Part shown: positions 9,910-21,777 of the stretch, piece by piece
Layout: every line of letters starts with the position of its first letter
How positions within the stretch are numbered: position 1 is the first letter of the stretch
DNA from: a virus
IMG/VR virus record: IMGVR_UViG_3300045988_160639
Direction: 5' to 3' (one strand)
Length of the DNA: 64,000 bases
The notes under the pieces: model-generated
The model's database searches: none
The model's input: the letters and a program-made list of their open reading frames with translations, nothing else
Told to the model about the DNA's origin: nothing
Program-made: the position numbers and the translations under genes

Positions 9910-10923
9910 ATGGATAAATTTAAAATGTACCAAAAAGGTATCAGCATTAAATCCCTTTACAATATGTACTATGAAGATGTTCCCGAGGTTGACTTCACGG
10001 ACGATATGCAGCGTGGAGAGGTGTGGAGTAATACCCGAAAATCTCTCTATATTCATTCAATCTTACTGAAGATTACCGATGCACAGTCCCCATTTATTGC
10101 AGGTGTAAGGGAACTTCCTAACGGAAATACTCTCCTGAAAATCTTTGACGGAAAGCAAAGAGGAACAACCATAATCCATTATATAGACGGAGATTTTGCC
10201 CTCACGGGACTGACAAACGAGCCTGATATATACCTCAACGGAGAACCCGTTAAGCTTCAGGGCAAGCGTTTTAAGCAGCTTCCTCCCAAACTCCAAAGCT
10301 GGATACTTGATACAACTCTGAACGTTTCTATAATAGAAAATGCTACACCCGAGCAGGAATCCCTTATTTTTCGCAGACTTAATAACGGAAAAACGGTTAG
10401 TAAGTTCGATATCGCCCGTTCCTATAAGCAGGGAATGGAAGATATCAAGGAGCTTACCAGCCACGAGCTGTTTAATGTAATGCTCACCTCAACGGAAAGA
10501 AAAGCCCTTAAACAGCAGGAAATCATAATCAGATCGTGGATAGCTCTCTTTGAGGAAGAACCAAACCTCACTCCAGCTCATGTCAACGAGGTTATGAAAG
10601 TCCTCAGTATTGATGCAGACGAAAGGGAACAGCTTAAGTCTTCATATGATTTTATATTTGAAGCATATAAGCTTATGGCAATAGAGAAGGAAAATTCAGA
10701 TATCATCAAACTGATGTTTAAACCAACTCATCTTATAGGATATCTGCCTTATCTGGAAAAATTTGATACCCCAGATCAGTTTGCAAAATGGACTGGAAAA
10801 TTCTTTGGTAATATGCCCGAAGAATATGCTTCTCTCGTCAGAGAACATACCACAAGCCCCACAAGCATAAAAGCAAGAAGAAATATTATAGAAAAATCTA
10901 TCAATGAATTTCTTGGAAAATAA
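9910..10923 (+). CDS. DUF262 (ParB/Srx-fold) domain protein
   Basis: MQRGEVW...FDGKQRGTTIIHY motifs; SD AGGAGG. Confidence 0.7.
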   Translation: MDKFKMYQKGISIKSLYNMYYEDVPEVDFTDDMQRGEVWSNTRKSLYIHSILLKITDAQSPFIAGVRELPNGNTLLKIFDGKQRGTTIIHYIDGDFALTGLTNEPDIYLNGEPVKLQGKRFKQLPPKLQSWILDTTLNVSIIENATPEQESLIFRRLNNGKTVSKFDIARSYKQGMEDIKELTSHELFNVMLTSTERKALKQQEIIIRSWIALFEEEPNLTPAHVNEVMKVLSIDADEREQLKSSYDFIFEAYKLMAIEKENSDIIKLMFKPTHLIGYLPYLEKFDTPDQFAKWTGKFFGNMPEEYASLVREHTTSPTSIKARRNIIEKSINEFLGK

Positions 10924-10939
10924 TTTTTCACAATAATAA

Positions 10940-10975
10940 AACCGTCACTCAATTAAGGGTGACGGTTATTTTTTA
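10940..10975. terminator. Bidirectional intrinsic terminator
   Basis: AACCGTCAC/GTGACGGTT stem followed by ATTTTTT. Confidence 0.7.
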
Positions 10976-11324
10976 TAAATTCGGAAAATTGGTTTAAGAC
11001 CGTTTGTTCATAAGAGGATGTGAAGAAATCATTCCGGTGATATAGTAATTCAAGTCGTCTGGAACGAATTTTAGCTGCCCTTTCAGGAATGTGACACATA
11101 TTTATGAGGTCTTCTATTTGATGAATATTACAAGCCCATAAAACGCACGCAGGAGCGAGAATATTTATTCCAAAATAATCTGCCTCGGTTTCATCTAAAG
11201 TTGGAATAATTATATGCCCAAACTCGTGAGCAATAATGAATCTTTGTTGATAAAACGGTTCAGAATCATCAACAATAATATAGTTTTTACTGGATTTGTT
11301 TAGGGTTGTAAAAGATTTCCCCAA
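10953..11324 (-). CDS. ImmA/IrrE-family zinc metalloprotease; homology seems to extend upstream to about 11501 without a canonical start
   Basis: HEFGH (HExxH) motif. The open frame upstream encodes an ImmA-like N-terminus and is stop-free to 11519. Confidence 0.7.
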   Translation of the reverse strand: MGKSFTTLNKSSKNYIIVDDSEPFYQQRFIIAHEFGHIIIPTLDETEADYFGINILAPACVLWACNIHQIEDLINMCHIPERAAKIRSRRLELLYHRNDFFTSSYEQTVLNQFSEFIKNNRHP

Positions 11325-11555
11325 CTCTAAAGGCTTTAGCTTGGCAAAATTATTGCTTGGAATATTGGAATTTTTTATAATGTCGGTGTTATAATTTACA
11401 CATAAGGGTATAAAATCTAAAGGTAAAGTTTTTATTTTGCAATCAATGAGGCATTGACAAGCTCTGTCTCTTGCACGTACATAATCTTTATACGGAGAAA
11501 TAAAATCACCCTTAGTTAGAATTTGTAACTAAGGGTGAAATATGTTTGGAAATAA

Positions 11556-12278
11556 TTATTTAGAAAAATCATTATTGGAAATAGGAAGAGAACTTAAAGA
11601 CTGAATGTCATTTGATGTAATCTTTCCAATAGTATTGTCAGGTGTCTTTGCAGCTTCCTGAATGATCTCATCAGAATTTTCATCATATGAGCCAACAACT
11701 TTTCCAAATACGGAAAATTTATCGGTATCGTAAACTTTAATAACTGGATAATCTGAATTTATTGAGTGTAAGCCATCATGTTCATATATTTTGAAATAAG
11801 GACTACCATTTAAAACAGCAATAACTTCATCACCATATTTGACCTCAGTAGTTTGTTTTACCCAAACGATGCTTCCGTGTGGATAATCTGGAGACATTGA
11901 ATCGCCGTTAATACGTATTCCGCAGTCAGCGTTTGACGGAATAATATCGTCTGGAAATTCTATTTCTTCAAAAGCATTATTTAAATAAAAATTAGTTGAT
12001 ATTCCTGCTCCAGCTGCAACTATAGCAATAGGAAATAATTTTTTATTACAAGATGTGCAAGTTATTTTGGAAATATCAGGGATATAACTGAGAATGTCTG
12101 ATATATCACATTTAAAATAATCGCACAACTTATTCAAGTTTTCAACAGAATAAGTTTTAGATTTGCCAGTTTCCATATCAGAAATCGTTTGTTTTCTAAT
12201 TTTAATGCTTTTGGATAATTCTTCTTGAGATAATTCATTATGGTTAAATCTCAGTGTTTTTAAATTACATTTAATCAT
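11556..12278 (-). CDS. CI/LexA-like repressor (N-terminal XRE HTH plus C-terminal S24 peptidase)
   Basis: HTH segment QEELSKSIKIRKQTISDMETG; S24 motif GDSMSP with a downstream Lys. Confidence 0.8.
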   Translation of the reverse strand: MIKCNLKTLRFNHNELSQEELSKSIKIRKQTISDMETGKSKTYSVENLNKLCDYFKCDISDILSYIPDISKITCTSCNKKLFPIAIVAAGAGISTNFYLNNAFEEIEFPDDIIPSNADCGIRINGDSMSPDYPHGSIVWVKQTTEVKYGDEVIAVLNGSPYFKIYEHDGLHSINSDYPVIKVYDTDKFSVFGKVVGSYDENSDEIIQEAAKTPDNTIGKITSNDIQSLSSLPISNNDFSK

Positions 12279-12348
12279 AGTGTTACACCTCTTGTATAAA
12301 ATGGATAAATTGTTATGGATAACTTTATATATTATTTATCCCAAAATA

Positions 12349-12390
12349 CACGAAATTCGTATTGACATTATGCGAATTTCGTGATATACT
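12349..12390 (+). promoter_or_regulatory. Promoter TTGACA-N17-TATACT embedded in an 11-bp inverted-repeat operator
   Basis: CACGAAATTCG (12349-12359) pairs with CGAATTTCGTG (12373-12383). The -35 is at 12362-12367 and the -10 at 12385-12390. Confidence 0.6.
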
Positions 12391-12534
12391 TAATACATAC
12401 CAAAGAGATGCAGAGATGCAAATCCTTAGTATTACATAATAACATATTTCAATAAAAAAGTCAAGTAGTAAGAAAGGAAGACAACGATGTGATATTATAA
12501 TTTACATAATAATAGGAAATCGCACTAAATCGAC

Positions 12535-12563
12535 TTGATTTATTATCTGCATTGCAGTATAAT
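12535..12563 (+). promoter_or_regulatory. Promoter TTGATT-N17-TATAAT for a candidate antisense RNA
   Basis: Hexamers at 12535-12540 and 12558-12563. No coding ORF lies downstream on this strand. Confidence 0.5.
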
Positions 12564-12602
12564 AGATATAGTAGGTAATCTGATACATAATCAAAAGCAA
12601 AA

Positions 12603-12628
12603 GCTCCCACTACCCATAACGTGAGAGC
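12603..12628 (-). terminator. Minus-strand intrinsic terminator downstream of the small membrane ORF
   Basis: On the minus strand, a GCTCTCAC/GTGGGAGC stem is followed by TTTTGCTTTTG. Confidence 0.45.
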
Positions 12629-12651
12629 CACCCATACTAACGCTCTGGGTG

Positions 12652-12810
12652 TTAATCTATCGGTCTAATATCGACCTTGAATCCATTCTTTCCGAGACGA
12701 ATGGAGAAACGATGTTTCTTGTCATTCAGGCACATTTTCACGATAATTACGAGCGTTATTGGAATAACGATTGTGCCGAGTATGGACAGCAACGCAATCA
12801 AAACCTCTAT
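12652..12810 (-). CDS. Small hydrophobic peptide (49-52 aa), type I toxin-like; start ATA at 12810 or TTG at 12801
   Basis: EVLIALLSILGTIVIPITLVIIV is followed by the basic tail KMCLNDKKHRFSIRLGKNGFK. SD GGAGG lies 8 nt upstream of the ATA. Too short for the ORF track. Confidence 0.4.
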   Translation of the reverse strand: MEVLIALLSILGTIVIPITLVIIVKMCLNDKKHRFSIRLGKNGFKVDIRPID

Positions 12811-12892
12811 ACAAATCCCCTCCTCTGTAGGTAGTCAAACTGCCGTAAGTAATACGGGGAAAAGGGGTATATGGGTCTTCCAACTACTTTTG

Positions 12893-12921
12893 ATTATACC
12901 AGATTATCTACAAAAAAGCAA
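12893..12921 (-). promoter_or_regulatory. Minus-strand promoter TTGCTT-N17-(TGg)TATAAT for the small membrane ORF
   Basis: Reverse complement of 12893-12898 and 12916-12921. Confidence 0.45.
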
Positions 12922-12927
12922 GAAAAT

Positions 12928-12970
12928 AGTGCGGTTTGATAGAAAAATTGTCAGACCGCACTATTTTTAT
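12928..12970. terminator. Bidirectional terminator
   Basis: AGTGCGGT/ACCGCACT stem with T-runs on both strands. Confidence 0.6.
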
Positions 12971-12974
12971 TGTA

Positions 12975-13205
12975 TTATTTGTTAATTTTGTCAAGATTTG
13001 ATTTATCAGGTATATACTCCATTAAATCCGAGGGCTGGCAATTAAATAAAGCACACAACTTGTTTATGGTCTTAGCATCTAAACCTTTTGTTCCATTCTT
13101 TAATCCATAATAAGTTGCTTGTCCAATAAGACCTGTTTCTCGAATTTTTGTTGCCGTATAACCATGTTCTGTTAAAAGTTTAAAAAGTTTATCATAATTA
13201 AGCAT
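12975..13205 (-). CDS. XRE/Cro-C1-type HTH repressor (76 aa)
   Basis: ATKIRETGLIGQATYYGLKNG HTH. Its C-terminus DLMEYIPD is paralogous to that of the repressor at 11556-12278. Confidence 0.75.
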   Translation of the reverse strand: MLNYDKLFKLLTEHGYTATKIRETGLIGQATYYGLKNGTKGLDAKTINKLCALFNCQPSDLMEYIPDKSNLDKINK

Positions 13206-13215
13206 TTAATACACC

Positions 13216-13303
13216 TCACTCAAATGAGTGAAAAATCACCATAAAAATTCACTTAATTTTGTGAAATGTGTGTATTGAAATTCACTTAATTAAGTGATAT
13301 ACT
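13216..13303 (+). promoter_or_regulatory. Three TCACT-N6-AGTGA operators plus promoter TTGAAA-N17-TATACT
   Basis: Operators at 13216-13231, 13249-13264 and 13282-13297; -35 at 13275-13280 and -10 at 13298-13303. Confidence 0.6.
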
Positions 13304-13435
13304 TATATCAAGGTCAAATCATAAAGGATTCAAACCTTAGTCTTATATAATAACATATGTTCTGAGATTTGTCAAGCACCTTTCAGAAAATATGTTATTA
13401 TATAAGTAAGTAAAAATTCAAAGGAGGATATACAT

Positions 13436-14794
13436 ATGGCAAAGACAGCAAAGAAAAAAGATTACAATTCTATTGAAATCAATGGAACTGCTTATACCAT
13501 TGCAGAGCGTGTGAGAGAAGAATCTGATGTGCGGATGATTCCTTATTCAGTAAAAATGTATGTTGAAGAAGTTGACGATGGAGAGATTTGTCGTGATCCA
13601 CTTATACAGAGAACGGATGACCAGTGGACAAAAAAGCAGAAGTCTAAGTTGATTGAAGCTGTTTTACATAATAGACCTATCGGAAGTATGGCACTTGCCA
13701 AGGGTAGAGCTGAGAGTAAAAGTTATTCAATCACATCTCTCGTAGATGGATTGCAGAGAACCACAACACTTGTAGACTTTTATCACGATAAATTTGCTTT
13801 GGATAAAAGAGCATTACCTGTTGTGTGTAGATGTGTTGACGAAAATGGCAATGAACAAAAAGTTGAAATTGATATTGCAGGGAAAAAATATTCTCAGCTT
13901 TCTGATGCGATAAAGACATTCTTTAATAAATATAGTCTTACCACATATATGCACGAGGGCTTTTCTGATGAAGAATTGGACGACATTGTATTCTGTATGA
14001 ATAACGGAAAGTCTCCAAATGCTTATCAGAAAATACGTTTTGCTCTCGGTTCAACAATTATGCGTTCTTTGCAGCCAATTTGTGATAGCACACTTTGGGA
14101 AGATGTTAATGGTTGCAAGGCAAAAAATGACAGTATCCTTTGTTGTATAGTAAGAACTCTTATGATGATGACATTTTACAATTATAATAATCTTGGCTCT
14201 GCAACGATGACTAAGTTTGTAGATGATTTTGATGATTATGTAAAAGCATCGGATATCGCTAATCTATCTATACTCGTAGAGGAACTTGCGGAAATTAAGA
14301 TGAATCTGTCGGAAGAAGAATCTACAAGATTAGATTCTGTGACTATTCCACATTATATAATGAGTCTTAATTCGTTTAAGAGAAAGAACAAAACAGCCAC
14401 TGATTACAGAAACTTTCTCAATAAATTCTGGAGCAGTGATAATTTTGAACTGCTTACATCAAGCTGTGAATCTAATGGTAGCGGAAGTTCTCTGTATTCT
14501 GCTGAAATGGTAGAAGACAGACAGTATGCTATAGATGATTATATGGACGAATATCTTGATGAGAATGAGGGTGAAATAAATGGCGAAGAAAACGGCACTG
14601 ACGAAAGCGGAGCAACAGGAAATACTAACAACGGAGATAATGGAACTGAAACAGACATTATCTCAGACGTGTTTGACACTGAAATTGTGTCAGAGGATAG
14701 TGGAACTGGCAACTCGTCAAGTGGAATTGAATCCGAAGTCAATGAAGATGGAAACGTCCTACAGGGAAGTGGGCAAAGCTTTAGGTCAGCCTGA
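13436..14794 (+). CDS. DUF262 (ParB/Srx-fold) protein with a long acidic low-complexity tail
   Basis: IQRTDDQW...VDGLQRTTTLVDF motifs; tail rich in E, N, G, D, S and T. Confidence 0.7.
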   Translation: MAKTAKKKDYNSIEINGTAYTIAERVREESDVRMIPYSVKMYVEEVDDGEICRDPLIQRTDDQWTKKQKSKLIEAVLHNRPIGSMALAKGRAESKSYSITSLVDGLQRTTTLVDFYHDKFALDKRALPVVCRCVDENGNEQKVEIDIAGKKYSQLSDAIKTFFNKYSLTTYMHEGFSDEELDDIVFCMNNGKSPNAYQKIRFALGSTIMRSLQPICDSTLWEDVNGCKAKNDSILCCIVRTLMMMTFYNYNNLGSATMTKFVDDFDDYVKASDIANLSILVEELAEIKMNLSEEESTRLDSVTIPHYIMSLNSFKRKNKTATDYRNFLNKFWSSDNFELLTSSCESNGSGSSLYSAEMVEDRQYAIDDYMDEYLDENEGEINGEENGTDESGATGNTNNGDNGTETDIISDVFDTEIVSEDSGTGNSSSGIESEVNEDGNVLQGSGQSFRSA

Positions 14795-21457: not shown

Positions 21458-21534
21458 CTCCCAATAGTCCAATCGGCAGAGACACAGAACTTAAAATTCT
21501 GACAGTGTGGATTCGAGTTCCACTTGGGAGACCA
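21458..21534 (+). tRNA. Class I (short variable arm) tRNA with anticodon UAA, nominally Leu
   Basis: Acceptor CTCCCAA/TTGGGAG, D loop with GG, anticodon stem CAGAA/TTCTG, loop CTTAAAA, variable region ACAGT, T arm GTGGA-TTCGAGT-TCCAC, A73 and encoded CCA. Confidence 0.7.
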
Positions 21535-21692: not shown

Positions 21693-21777
21693 GCTCCTAT
21701 GGTGGAATTGCAAGACACGCTTGACTCAAAATCAAGTACCGAAAGGTGTGACGGTTGGAATCCGTCTGGGAGTACCA
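21693..21777 (+). tRNA. tRNA-Leu(CAA), class II
   Basis: Acceptor GCTCCTA/TGGGAGT, anticodon stem CTTGA/TCAAG, loop CTCAAAA, 13-nt variable arm TACCGAAAGGTGT, T arm GACGG-TTGGAAT-CCGTC, A-CCA. Confidence 0.7.

Follow-up and report, generated by a model that had tools for sequence, protein, structure and literature searches.

A candidate type I toxin-antitoxin-like cassette in the lysogeny region of a temperate gut phage

We analyzed the gap between two repressor genes in a 64,000-nucleotide (nt) stretch of viral DNA, IMG/VR record IMGVR_UViG_3300045988_160639. This whole stretch is called the window, and coordinates refer to it unless another locus is named. The gap belongs to the lysogeny region of a temperate Bacillota phage of the gut and appears to hold a type I toxin-antitoxin-like cassette that is complete in itself. 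We give this reading a probability of about 0.55. The minus strand encodes a 52-amino-acid (aa) membrane peptide, and a promoter on the plus strand faces the 3' end of the peptide mRNA. The cassette is a credible candidate for a new type I toxin-antitoxin family, with the anatomy of an already known kind of system. An earlier note, written from the letters of this DNA, had proposed such a layout here, and its proposal stands in part. The peptide gene is conserved and the opposing promoter is kept in several sequence types, but two types (L040 and L041) do not have an opposing promoter adjacent to the gene.

In the proposed mechanism, the peptide mRNA would be made constitutively in lysogens. 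It would be poorly translated, with an AUA start and, in this variant, a Shine-Dalgarno (SD) sequence paired with CCCCUUUUC. The facing promoter would make an RNA fully complementary to the peptide 3' untranslated region (UTR) and terminator. In the window this RNA would probably also span the open reading frame (ORF) and leader and end at 12922-12968. The peptide would be kept off by duplex formation, transcriptional collision, or both. After prophage loss or a disturbed balance, it would enter the membrane and arrest growth, which may lead to prophage maintenance or abortive infection. A repressor-controlled promoter at 12362-12390, when derepressed, would add further antisense transcription.

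Conserved cassette and peptide gene

The cassette covers about 490 nt (window ~12992-12503). BLAST identity was 78-99% across the fetched loci, and the flanks differed. Thirty copies, 16 of them distinct, were retrieved from human-gut phage and metagenome contigs. Six IMG/VR contigs and 11 human-gut metagenome contigs were found with the translated frame, and ENA and Logan contigs were reached via the homologue P0001. The six sequence types compared below include those of the window, L034, L038, L039, L040, and L041. We judge the features of the block to be real because it is kept as a unit, with the peptide gene's own promoter and terminator, in 16 distinct sequences with different flanks. 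The cassette always lies in a phage immunity region, beside S24 repressor, Bro-N/ANT, or GmrSD_N genes. Its upstream neighbor is a helix-turn-helix (HTH) gene in some contigs and another gene elsewhere. Between the cassette and the S24 repressor promoter region are 0 to ~2 kb of other genes, varying by contig. This distribution indicates a mobile unit that moves between phage contexts and resides in the lysogeny region of temperate Bacillota phages.

Conservation along the block was uneven. Variable columns made up 29% of the upstream bidirectional terminator and 32% of the peptide promoter. The 5' UTR was the most variable part of the cassette (70%), with three or four unrelated versions and many indels. 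The values were 19% for the ORF half coding the transmembrane (TM) segment, 39% for the half coding the tail, and 15% for the mRNA terminator. They were 24% from this terminator to the opposing -10, 21% for the opposing promoter, and 86% past the cassette edge. Natural deletion variants were present in L001 (815-1180) and L003 (1481-1860). In both, 31 nt (TCGCACCCCATGTGGGGCGTG...) stand in place of the terminator and of the ORF past codon 6, and the two converging promoters are intact. A ~30-nt direct repeat in L040 (2270-2300 and 2723-2755), with the Bro-N/ANT start region, lies on both sides of the peptide cassette. It looks like the footprint of cassette insertion or recombination.

The peptide gene (12810-12652, minus strand) has 52 codons plus TAA (12654-12652) and begins with ATA (12810-12808). 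Its product is (M/I)EVLIALLSILGTIVIPITLVIIVKMCLNDKKHRFSIRLGKNGFKVDIRPID. Variable columns among the 16 distinct sequences number 11/8/26 at codon positions 1/2/3 (p=6.5e-4), and the frame contains no indel or stop. The ratio of nonsynonymous to synonymous substitution rates (dN/dS, Nei-Gojobori) was 0.17 for the window versus the L034 type, 0.29 for the window versus the L038 type, and 0.17 for L034 versus L038. The synonymous rate (dS) was 0.5-1.0 across these three comparisons. The 12 distinct ATA-type sequences contain no frameshift or stop. These patterns indicate that the minus-strand frame is coding and under purifying selection, and the peptide gene proposed earlier appears to be real. 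Contrary to the earlier statement, the gap is not strictly free of called ORFs. The protein database holds a product of the window, P0002, of 29 aa (MKMCLNDKK...), which is this frame called too short, from a GTG inside it. Gene callers miss or shorten the ORF because of its ATA start.

ATA had been offered as the start, with TTG as the other option. We take ATA as the start position because homologues carry ATG exactly there. The L038/L018-type sequence GGAGGGATTAAT-ATG-GGG-GTT-TTG aligns base for base with GGAGGGGATTTGT-ATA-GAG-GTT-TTG of the window. ATG is found at the ATA position, with the same spacing from GGAGG, in the L038, L040, and L041 types. L039 keeps ATA-GAG, and the sole ATG there lies 1 nt after GGAGG. 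ATA is used in three of the six types and ATG in the other three. The low dN/dS between two ATA lineages (window and L034) argues that the peptide is still made.

The peptide is predicted to have one hydrophobic TM segment (residues 5-23, mean Kyte-Doolittle hydropathy 2.77). Its 28-aa tail contains 8 K/R, 3 D/E, and 1 H and is net positive, in agreement with the hydrophobic N-terminus and charged tail described before. Type I toxins are small (<60 aa) hydrophobic peptides with a TM segment and a charged C-terminus (PMC6563280), and the predicted properties fit this description. An AlphaFold2 model built on a two-sequence alignment has a helix at residues 2-29 and a beta-hairpin at 33-40/43-50, with a mean predicted local distance difference test score of 80. 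A Foldseek search of this model against BFVD returned nothing at E<=0.001. The motifs ITL(I/V)(I/V), KMCLKDKKH, and (N/D)K-GF recur across the family.

A profile search of 1.84 billion representative proteins found six clusters only. The homologues are P0001 and P0003-P0006; P0004, P0005, and P0006 are the distant three, at 39-48% identity. The sole name for the clusters in any source is 'hypothetical protein [Caudoviricetes sp.]'. A 588-aa cluster "member", P0008, has no likeness to the peptides and was discarded as a clustering artifact; by eye it looks like an aspartate-oxidase-type flavoenzyme. Seven family members had no family match in Pfam, NCBIfam, PADLOC, or PHROG even at E<=10. TxpA/BsrG, BsrH/BsrE, YonT, Fst/Ldr, Hok, TisB, and other curated toxin families gave no profile match (E<=10), and there was no Pfam or PHROG holin match. 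The gene also does not fit a holin because it sits in the immunity region between two repressor genes and not in a lysis module. A blastn search of 12280-13000 against 50,697 phage and 72,556 plasmid records had no match. The 185,579 GTDB species genomes contained no relative of the peptide and no copy of the conserved terminator motif. On these searches the peptide family is new and very rare.

Signals on the two strands

The minus-strand promoter, SD, frame, and terminator and the plus-strand promoters all lie at, or a few bases from, the positions given in the earlier note. The peptide mRNA promoter (12921-12893, minus strand) reads TTGCTT-N17-TGgTATAAT, with an extended -10 and a predicted start at ~12886. 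It is kept in the cassette copies and is near-consensus in all six types. L039, L040, and L041 have a 12/12 consensus promoter at the equivalent position. The 5' UTR (12886-12824, minus strand) contains a UUGGAAG 5' motif, CCCAUA (12874-12869), and the C/U-rich anti-SD CCCCUUUUC (12867-12859). An (A/U)UUGGAAG 5' motif and a C/U-rich stretch are common to the leaders of all six types; the window leader is 76 nt long.

The SD GGAGG (12823-12819, minus strand) lies within AGAGGAGGGG, 8 nt upstream of the ATA, and is conserved in six of six types. In the window leader, CCCCUUUUC is predicted to pair with it. The probability that the SD is unpaired was 0.006, versus 0.32 in shuffled sequences, and 1.3% of shuffles matched the window value. 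SD sequestration as a family-wide feature was rejected, since the fraction of shuffles doing as well was 0.46 for L030, 0.97 for L034, and 0.18 for L038. The AUA start under purifying selection and the SD predicted to be paired in the window leader point to restrained translation of the putative toxin mRNA.

The 3' UTR contains an element (12651-12629, minus strand) of the form (UAA)CACCCA...GUUAGUAUGGGUG. It is partly invariant across the six types and can fold into a small hairpin on either strand. The peptide mRNA terminator follows (12628-12592, minus strand). It has the stem GCUCUCAC/GUGGGAGC (12628-12603), the loop CGUUAUGGGUA, and the U-tract UUUUGCUUUUG (12602-12592). Its hairpin, CUCUCAC-GYUAUGGGWA-GUGRGAG, is the best-conserved element of the family, with 81-96% identity to distant types versus 49-86% for the ORF. 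A U.G wobble in the window stem pairs on the minus-strand RNA only. The leader CCCAUA is complementary to UAUGGG of the terminator loop, and L039 has CCCUAUA and UAUAGGG instead. Pairing of the 5' UTR with the loop was nominally significant in the window, L030, and L039 types (0.012-0.046). The values for L029, L038, and L040 (0.074-0.076) and for L034 and L041 (0.38-0.47) did not reach significance. We regard the leader-loop complementarity as an unexplained lead.

The opposing promoter (12535-12563, plus strand) is of the sigma-70 type, reads TTGATT-N17-TATAAT, and has a predicted start at ~12570. It lies 30 nt past the peptide mRNA U-tract. In several independent flanks the cassette homology ends ~25 nt before the -35 of this promoter. 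Conservation of the stretch after the peptide terminator is close to that of the ORF; the window and L038 are 94% identical there, and the dS of the ORF in this pair is ~0.5. The L034 type keeps TTGGTT-N16-TTTAAT despite a 2-nt deletion. L039, with a flank that is not alignable, has TTGATT-N17-TGnTATACT at the equivalent place. By this comparison the opposing promoter is conserved with the cassette in the window, L034, and L038 types, and L039 has a promoter-like site. Nothing downstream of it, up to the terminator at 12968, is coding. The promoter spacer contains the palindrome CTGCATTGCAG (12548-12558, plus strand). The L034 type has CCGCTTTGCGG here, a change in both arms, and the L038 type has CTGCTTTGCAG. 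The palindrome may act as an operator for a protein or form a hairpin in RNA.

The bidirectional terminator, placed earlier at 12928-12970, was found at 12922-12968. Its 17-20 bp stem is flanked on each side by A-runs and T-runs. The conserved cassette has its left edge at this terminator, which is present in all copies, and L039 has an unrelated bidirectional terminator at the equivalent place. The terminator is predicted to end the upstream HTH gene and to insulate the peptide promoter. Antisense transcripts on the plus strand have no other strong terminator. The putative antisense transcript (12570-12968, plus strand) is complementary in its 5' part to the peptide mRNA terminator and 3' UTR. 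Because there is no good terminator before 12922-12968, it is probably ~400 nt long and crosses the whole peptide mRNA and its promoter. A short antisense RNA with its own terminator was considered and rejected; the candidate is weak in the window and good in L039 (hairpin plus UUUUUUGU, RNA of ~80 nt).

L041 (2748-2969) and L040 (2762-2790) contain a same-strand consensus promoter ~45 nt past the peptide terminator. In L041 it would yield a ~185-nt ORF-less RNA ending at a terminator at 2946-2969. This RNA could be a different kind of partner RNA. Duplex energies for the downstream RNAs of L040 and L041 as trans antitoxins were uninformative in a simple global test.

The second plus-strand promoter (12362-12390) reads TTGACA-N17-TATACT, and its hexamers are invariant in five related loci. 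The inverted-repeat operator over its -35, described earlier as 11 bp, is present at 12349-12362/12370-12383 and measures 14 nt with 93% complementarity. The promoter of the S24 repressor gene (12464-12436, minus strand) reads TTGACT-N17-TATTAT. The two promoters stand face-to-face with overlapping transcripts, a geometry that resembles the coliphage 186/P2 switch. In L012 the equivalent of the plus-strand promoter leads into a real 131-aa ORF. From the window copy of this promoter, RNA would run through the cassette in antisense as far as 12968. At 12474-12492 (plus strand), the strong SD AAAGGAAG precedes a mini-ORF made up of a start and a stop codon only (ATG-TGA). An ATG-TGA or ATG-TAA mini-ORF is kept beside the cassette in several related loci.

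Competing explanations

Several observations weigh against a type I system. Promoter-like matches in the AT-rich stretch numbered 12, versus 8.9 +/- 3.3 in shuffles, and are not above chance. Promoter-like hexamers alone are not significant, and the case for the features therefore rests on the comparative and conservation data. An opposing promoter is absent from the 280 nt next to the terminator in L041, and the nearest one in L040 is ~190 nt away; both loci have the same-strand promoter after the peptide terminator instead. A relaxed scan found no convincing plus-strand terminator in the window before 12922-12968 and none that would serve a short antisense RNA. The length given for the antisense RNA is a guess. 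SD occlusion was significant in the window-type leader only and not in those of L030, L034, and L038. Loss of the ORF from some cassettes is compatible with a toxin but proves nothing. A folded beta-hairpin tail, as modeled here, is not the usual disordered Lys-rich tail and could favor a specific protein function over crude membrane damage.

Some of these points fit the main rival reading, an ordinary prophage "moron", a small membrane protein expressed in the lysogen without an RNA antitoxin. It may, for example, exclude superinfecting phages, cause abortive infection, or modulate a holin or a membrane protein of the host. The opposing promoter-like sequence would then be incidental, or would serve insulation or transcriptional interference, or would be a conserved protein-binding region. 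We consider this possible, though on the unlikely side. The gene has its own promoter and terminator and is placed in the lysogeny module among accessory genes, and L040 and L041 do without an adjacent opposing promoter. The tail is predicted to be a defined beta-hairpin with conserved KMCLKDKKH and NK-GF motifs, which suggests a specific interaction, and the spacer palindrome with its compensatory changes could be a protein operator. Such a protein does not account well for a post-terminator segment as conserved as the ORF, with a cassette boundary just past the opposing -35 and nothing else between the opposing promoter and the terminator at 12968. A weak AUA start under purifying selection in three lineages, behind a strong promoter, also fits a product that is kept very low.

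The window gene may otherwise be a decaying remnant. Here a toxin would have been silenced by an ATG-to-ATA change, the frame would be untranslated, and the RNA elements alone would matter. ATA is a very poor initiator, gene callers give only the 29-aa fragment P0002, and ORF-deleted cassettes exist. We find this improbable, as dN/dS is 0.17 between the window and the L034 type, which are both ATA types, and none of the 12 distinct ATA-type sequences has decayed by frameshift or stop. The SD retains the right distance from the start, and the distant L039 also keeps ATA-GAG.

A structured noncoding RNA or a plus-strand protein, with a fortuitous minus-strand ORF, is very improbable and largely refuted. 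The G+C content is 41-47% over 12590-12880 versus ~27% in the flanks, conservation is higher in the terminator hairpin and 3' UTR than in the ORF, and the frames 12649-12834 and 12677-12985 (plus strand) are open in the window. These two plus-strand ORFs, which the earlier note had called implausible, were rejected. They have no family matches, and the opposite-strand frame gains a stop in the L038 type. The earlier note had also raised a longer structured RNA of another class. An Rfam scan of 11000-14500 on both strands (E<=1) returned only four chance-level eukaryotic microRNA or small nucleolar RNA matches, and the fold z-score of the whole peptide mRNA was only -1.6. The Rfam type I antitoxin families (e.g., RatA, par RNA II/Fst antitoxin, and SprA1as) gave no covariance-model match on either strand. 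The third-position pattern, the ATG and SD of the homologues, and the protein homologues at 39-48% identity fit the minus frame.

There is also a more elaborate form of the type I reading, which we hold to be doubtful. The cassettes would be an undescribed family of type I modules of uncultured gut Bacillota phages. Their toxin would be deliberately AUA-initiated in several lineages, and the terminator hairpin, with the loop CGYUAUGGGWA most conserved, would be a sequence-specific regulatory element. The loop mimics the start context (UAUGGG) and may compete with the start region for the leader CCCAUA, and CCCUAUA/UAUAGGG covary in L039. Such a 5'-3' conformational lock would act together with a convergent antisense RNA.

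Genome setting and known systems

The gap is flanked by an S24/HTH repressor gene (11556-12278, minus strand; Peptidase_S24 plus HTH) and by an HTH gene (12975-13205, minus strand; 76 aa, Cro/C1 type). An ImmA/IrrE-type metalloprotease gene (10953-11324, minus strand; 123 aa, TTG start) follows immediately downstream of the gene for the autocleaving S24 repressor. The phage thus encodes, side by side, two distinct means of inactivating a repressor. Paralogous GmrSD_N/DUF262 genes (ParB-like nuclease domain) are located at 9910-10923 and 13436-14794, on either side of the immunity region. This pairing was found again beside the cassette in L018-L021 and L039. The phage also encodes two tRNA-Leu genes (21458-21534 and 21693-21777, plus strand) with anticodons TAA and CAA. 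Its helicase is 35% identical to helicases of Geobacillus and Enterococcus phages, as fits a Bacillota-type phage.

Gram-positive type I systems typically have a small TM toxin with a charged C-terminus and a convergent antisense RNA complementary to the 3' end (PMC6563280, PMC8167048). They are found in prophages, and translation of the toxin is restrained via SD occlusion or a noncanonical start codon (PMC6563280, PMC8167048). The comparison with txpA/RatA and bsrG/SR4 of the Bacillus subtilis skin and SPbeta prophages made in the earlier note holds for the layout but not for homology. Shared features are a prophage-borne small peptide with an N-terminal TM helix, a toxin promoter and terminator of its own, an opposing promoter just past the toxin terminator, and a strong SD with translational attenuation (PMC6563280, PMC8167048). 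However, the window peptide and RNA have no sequence similarity to these systems. The window also has no short-RNA terminator, and its antisense RNA may cover the whole mRNA (~400 nt). Its start is AUA and its tail is a predicted beta-hairpin. We limit the claim to "works like" txpA/RatA, bsrG/SR4, or the C. difficile prophage systems and not "member of" because the peptide is not homologous to TxpA, BsrG, Fst, or any curated family.

The Clostridioides difficile systems of phiCD630-1/-2 (CD0977.1-RCd11 and CD0956.2-RCd10, among others) encode toxins 34-59 aa long that, as here, are hydrophobic at the N-terminus and charged at the C-terminus (PMC7699646, PMC6563280). They have convergent antisense RNAs with long complementarity, as proposed for the window, and belong to prophages of gut Bacillota (PMC7699646, PMC6563280). 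A role in prophage maintenance has been shown for C. difficile type I systems (PMC7699646). Library searches found no homology to the CD0956.2 and CD0977.1 toxins, and the likeness is one of description and not of direct sequence comparison. The window tail mixes Lys and Arg, has conserved Cys, His, and Gly-Phe motifs, and is not simply lysine-rich, and the window has no riboswitch or CRISPR association.

The par system (Fst/RNA I-RNA II, Enterococcus faecalis pAD1) resembles the cassette in its convergent units, its use of a bidirectional terminator, and its small TM toxin, the tail of which is charged (PMC8167048). In par the shared terminator is placed between the two genes, whereas the toxin terminator of the window is unidirectional and the toxin promoter has the bidirectional one upstream of it. 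The window had no Fst family match and no direct-repeat motifs for interaction. The window resembles the 5'-3' long-distance interaction locks of hok/Sok and aapA1/IsoA1 (concept, PMC8167048) in two predictions. The mRNA 5' end (UUGGAAG, ACCCAUA) would pair with the 3' UTR and the post-terminator U-tract, and the SD would be occluded by the leader anti-SD. The lock here is predicted and not consistently significant across variants. The window differs further in belonging to a Gram-positive phage and in having the putative antisense RNA convergent at the 3' end and not at the 5' end.

If the type I reading is right, the peptide would be a new toxin family among type I systems, and these systems would extend to large temperate phages of uncultured human-gut Bacillota. 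Such modules would be invisible to annotation in these phages, and "ORF-free" gaps in phage immunity regions merit comparative checks. The peptide would also be a natural case of a toxin that starts at AUA and is maintained by purifying selection. This start, which recurs under such selection, may be of interest to specialists, as may the hyperconserved terminator loop. As a compact portable unit of terminator, promoter, toxin, terminator, and opposing promoter, the cassette may be of use for counterselection or stabilization, as with the C. difficile systems (PMC7699646).

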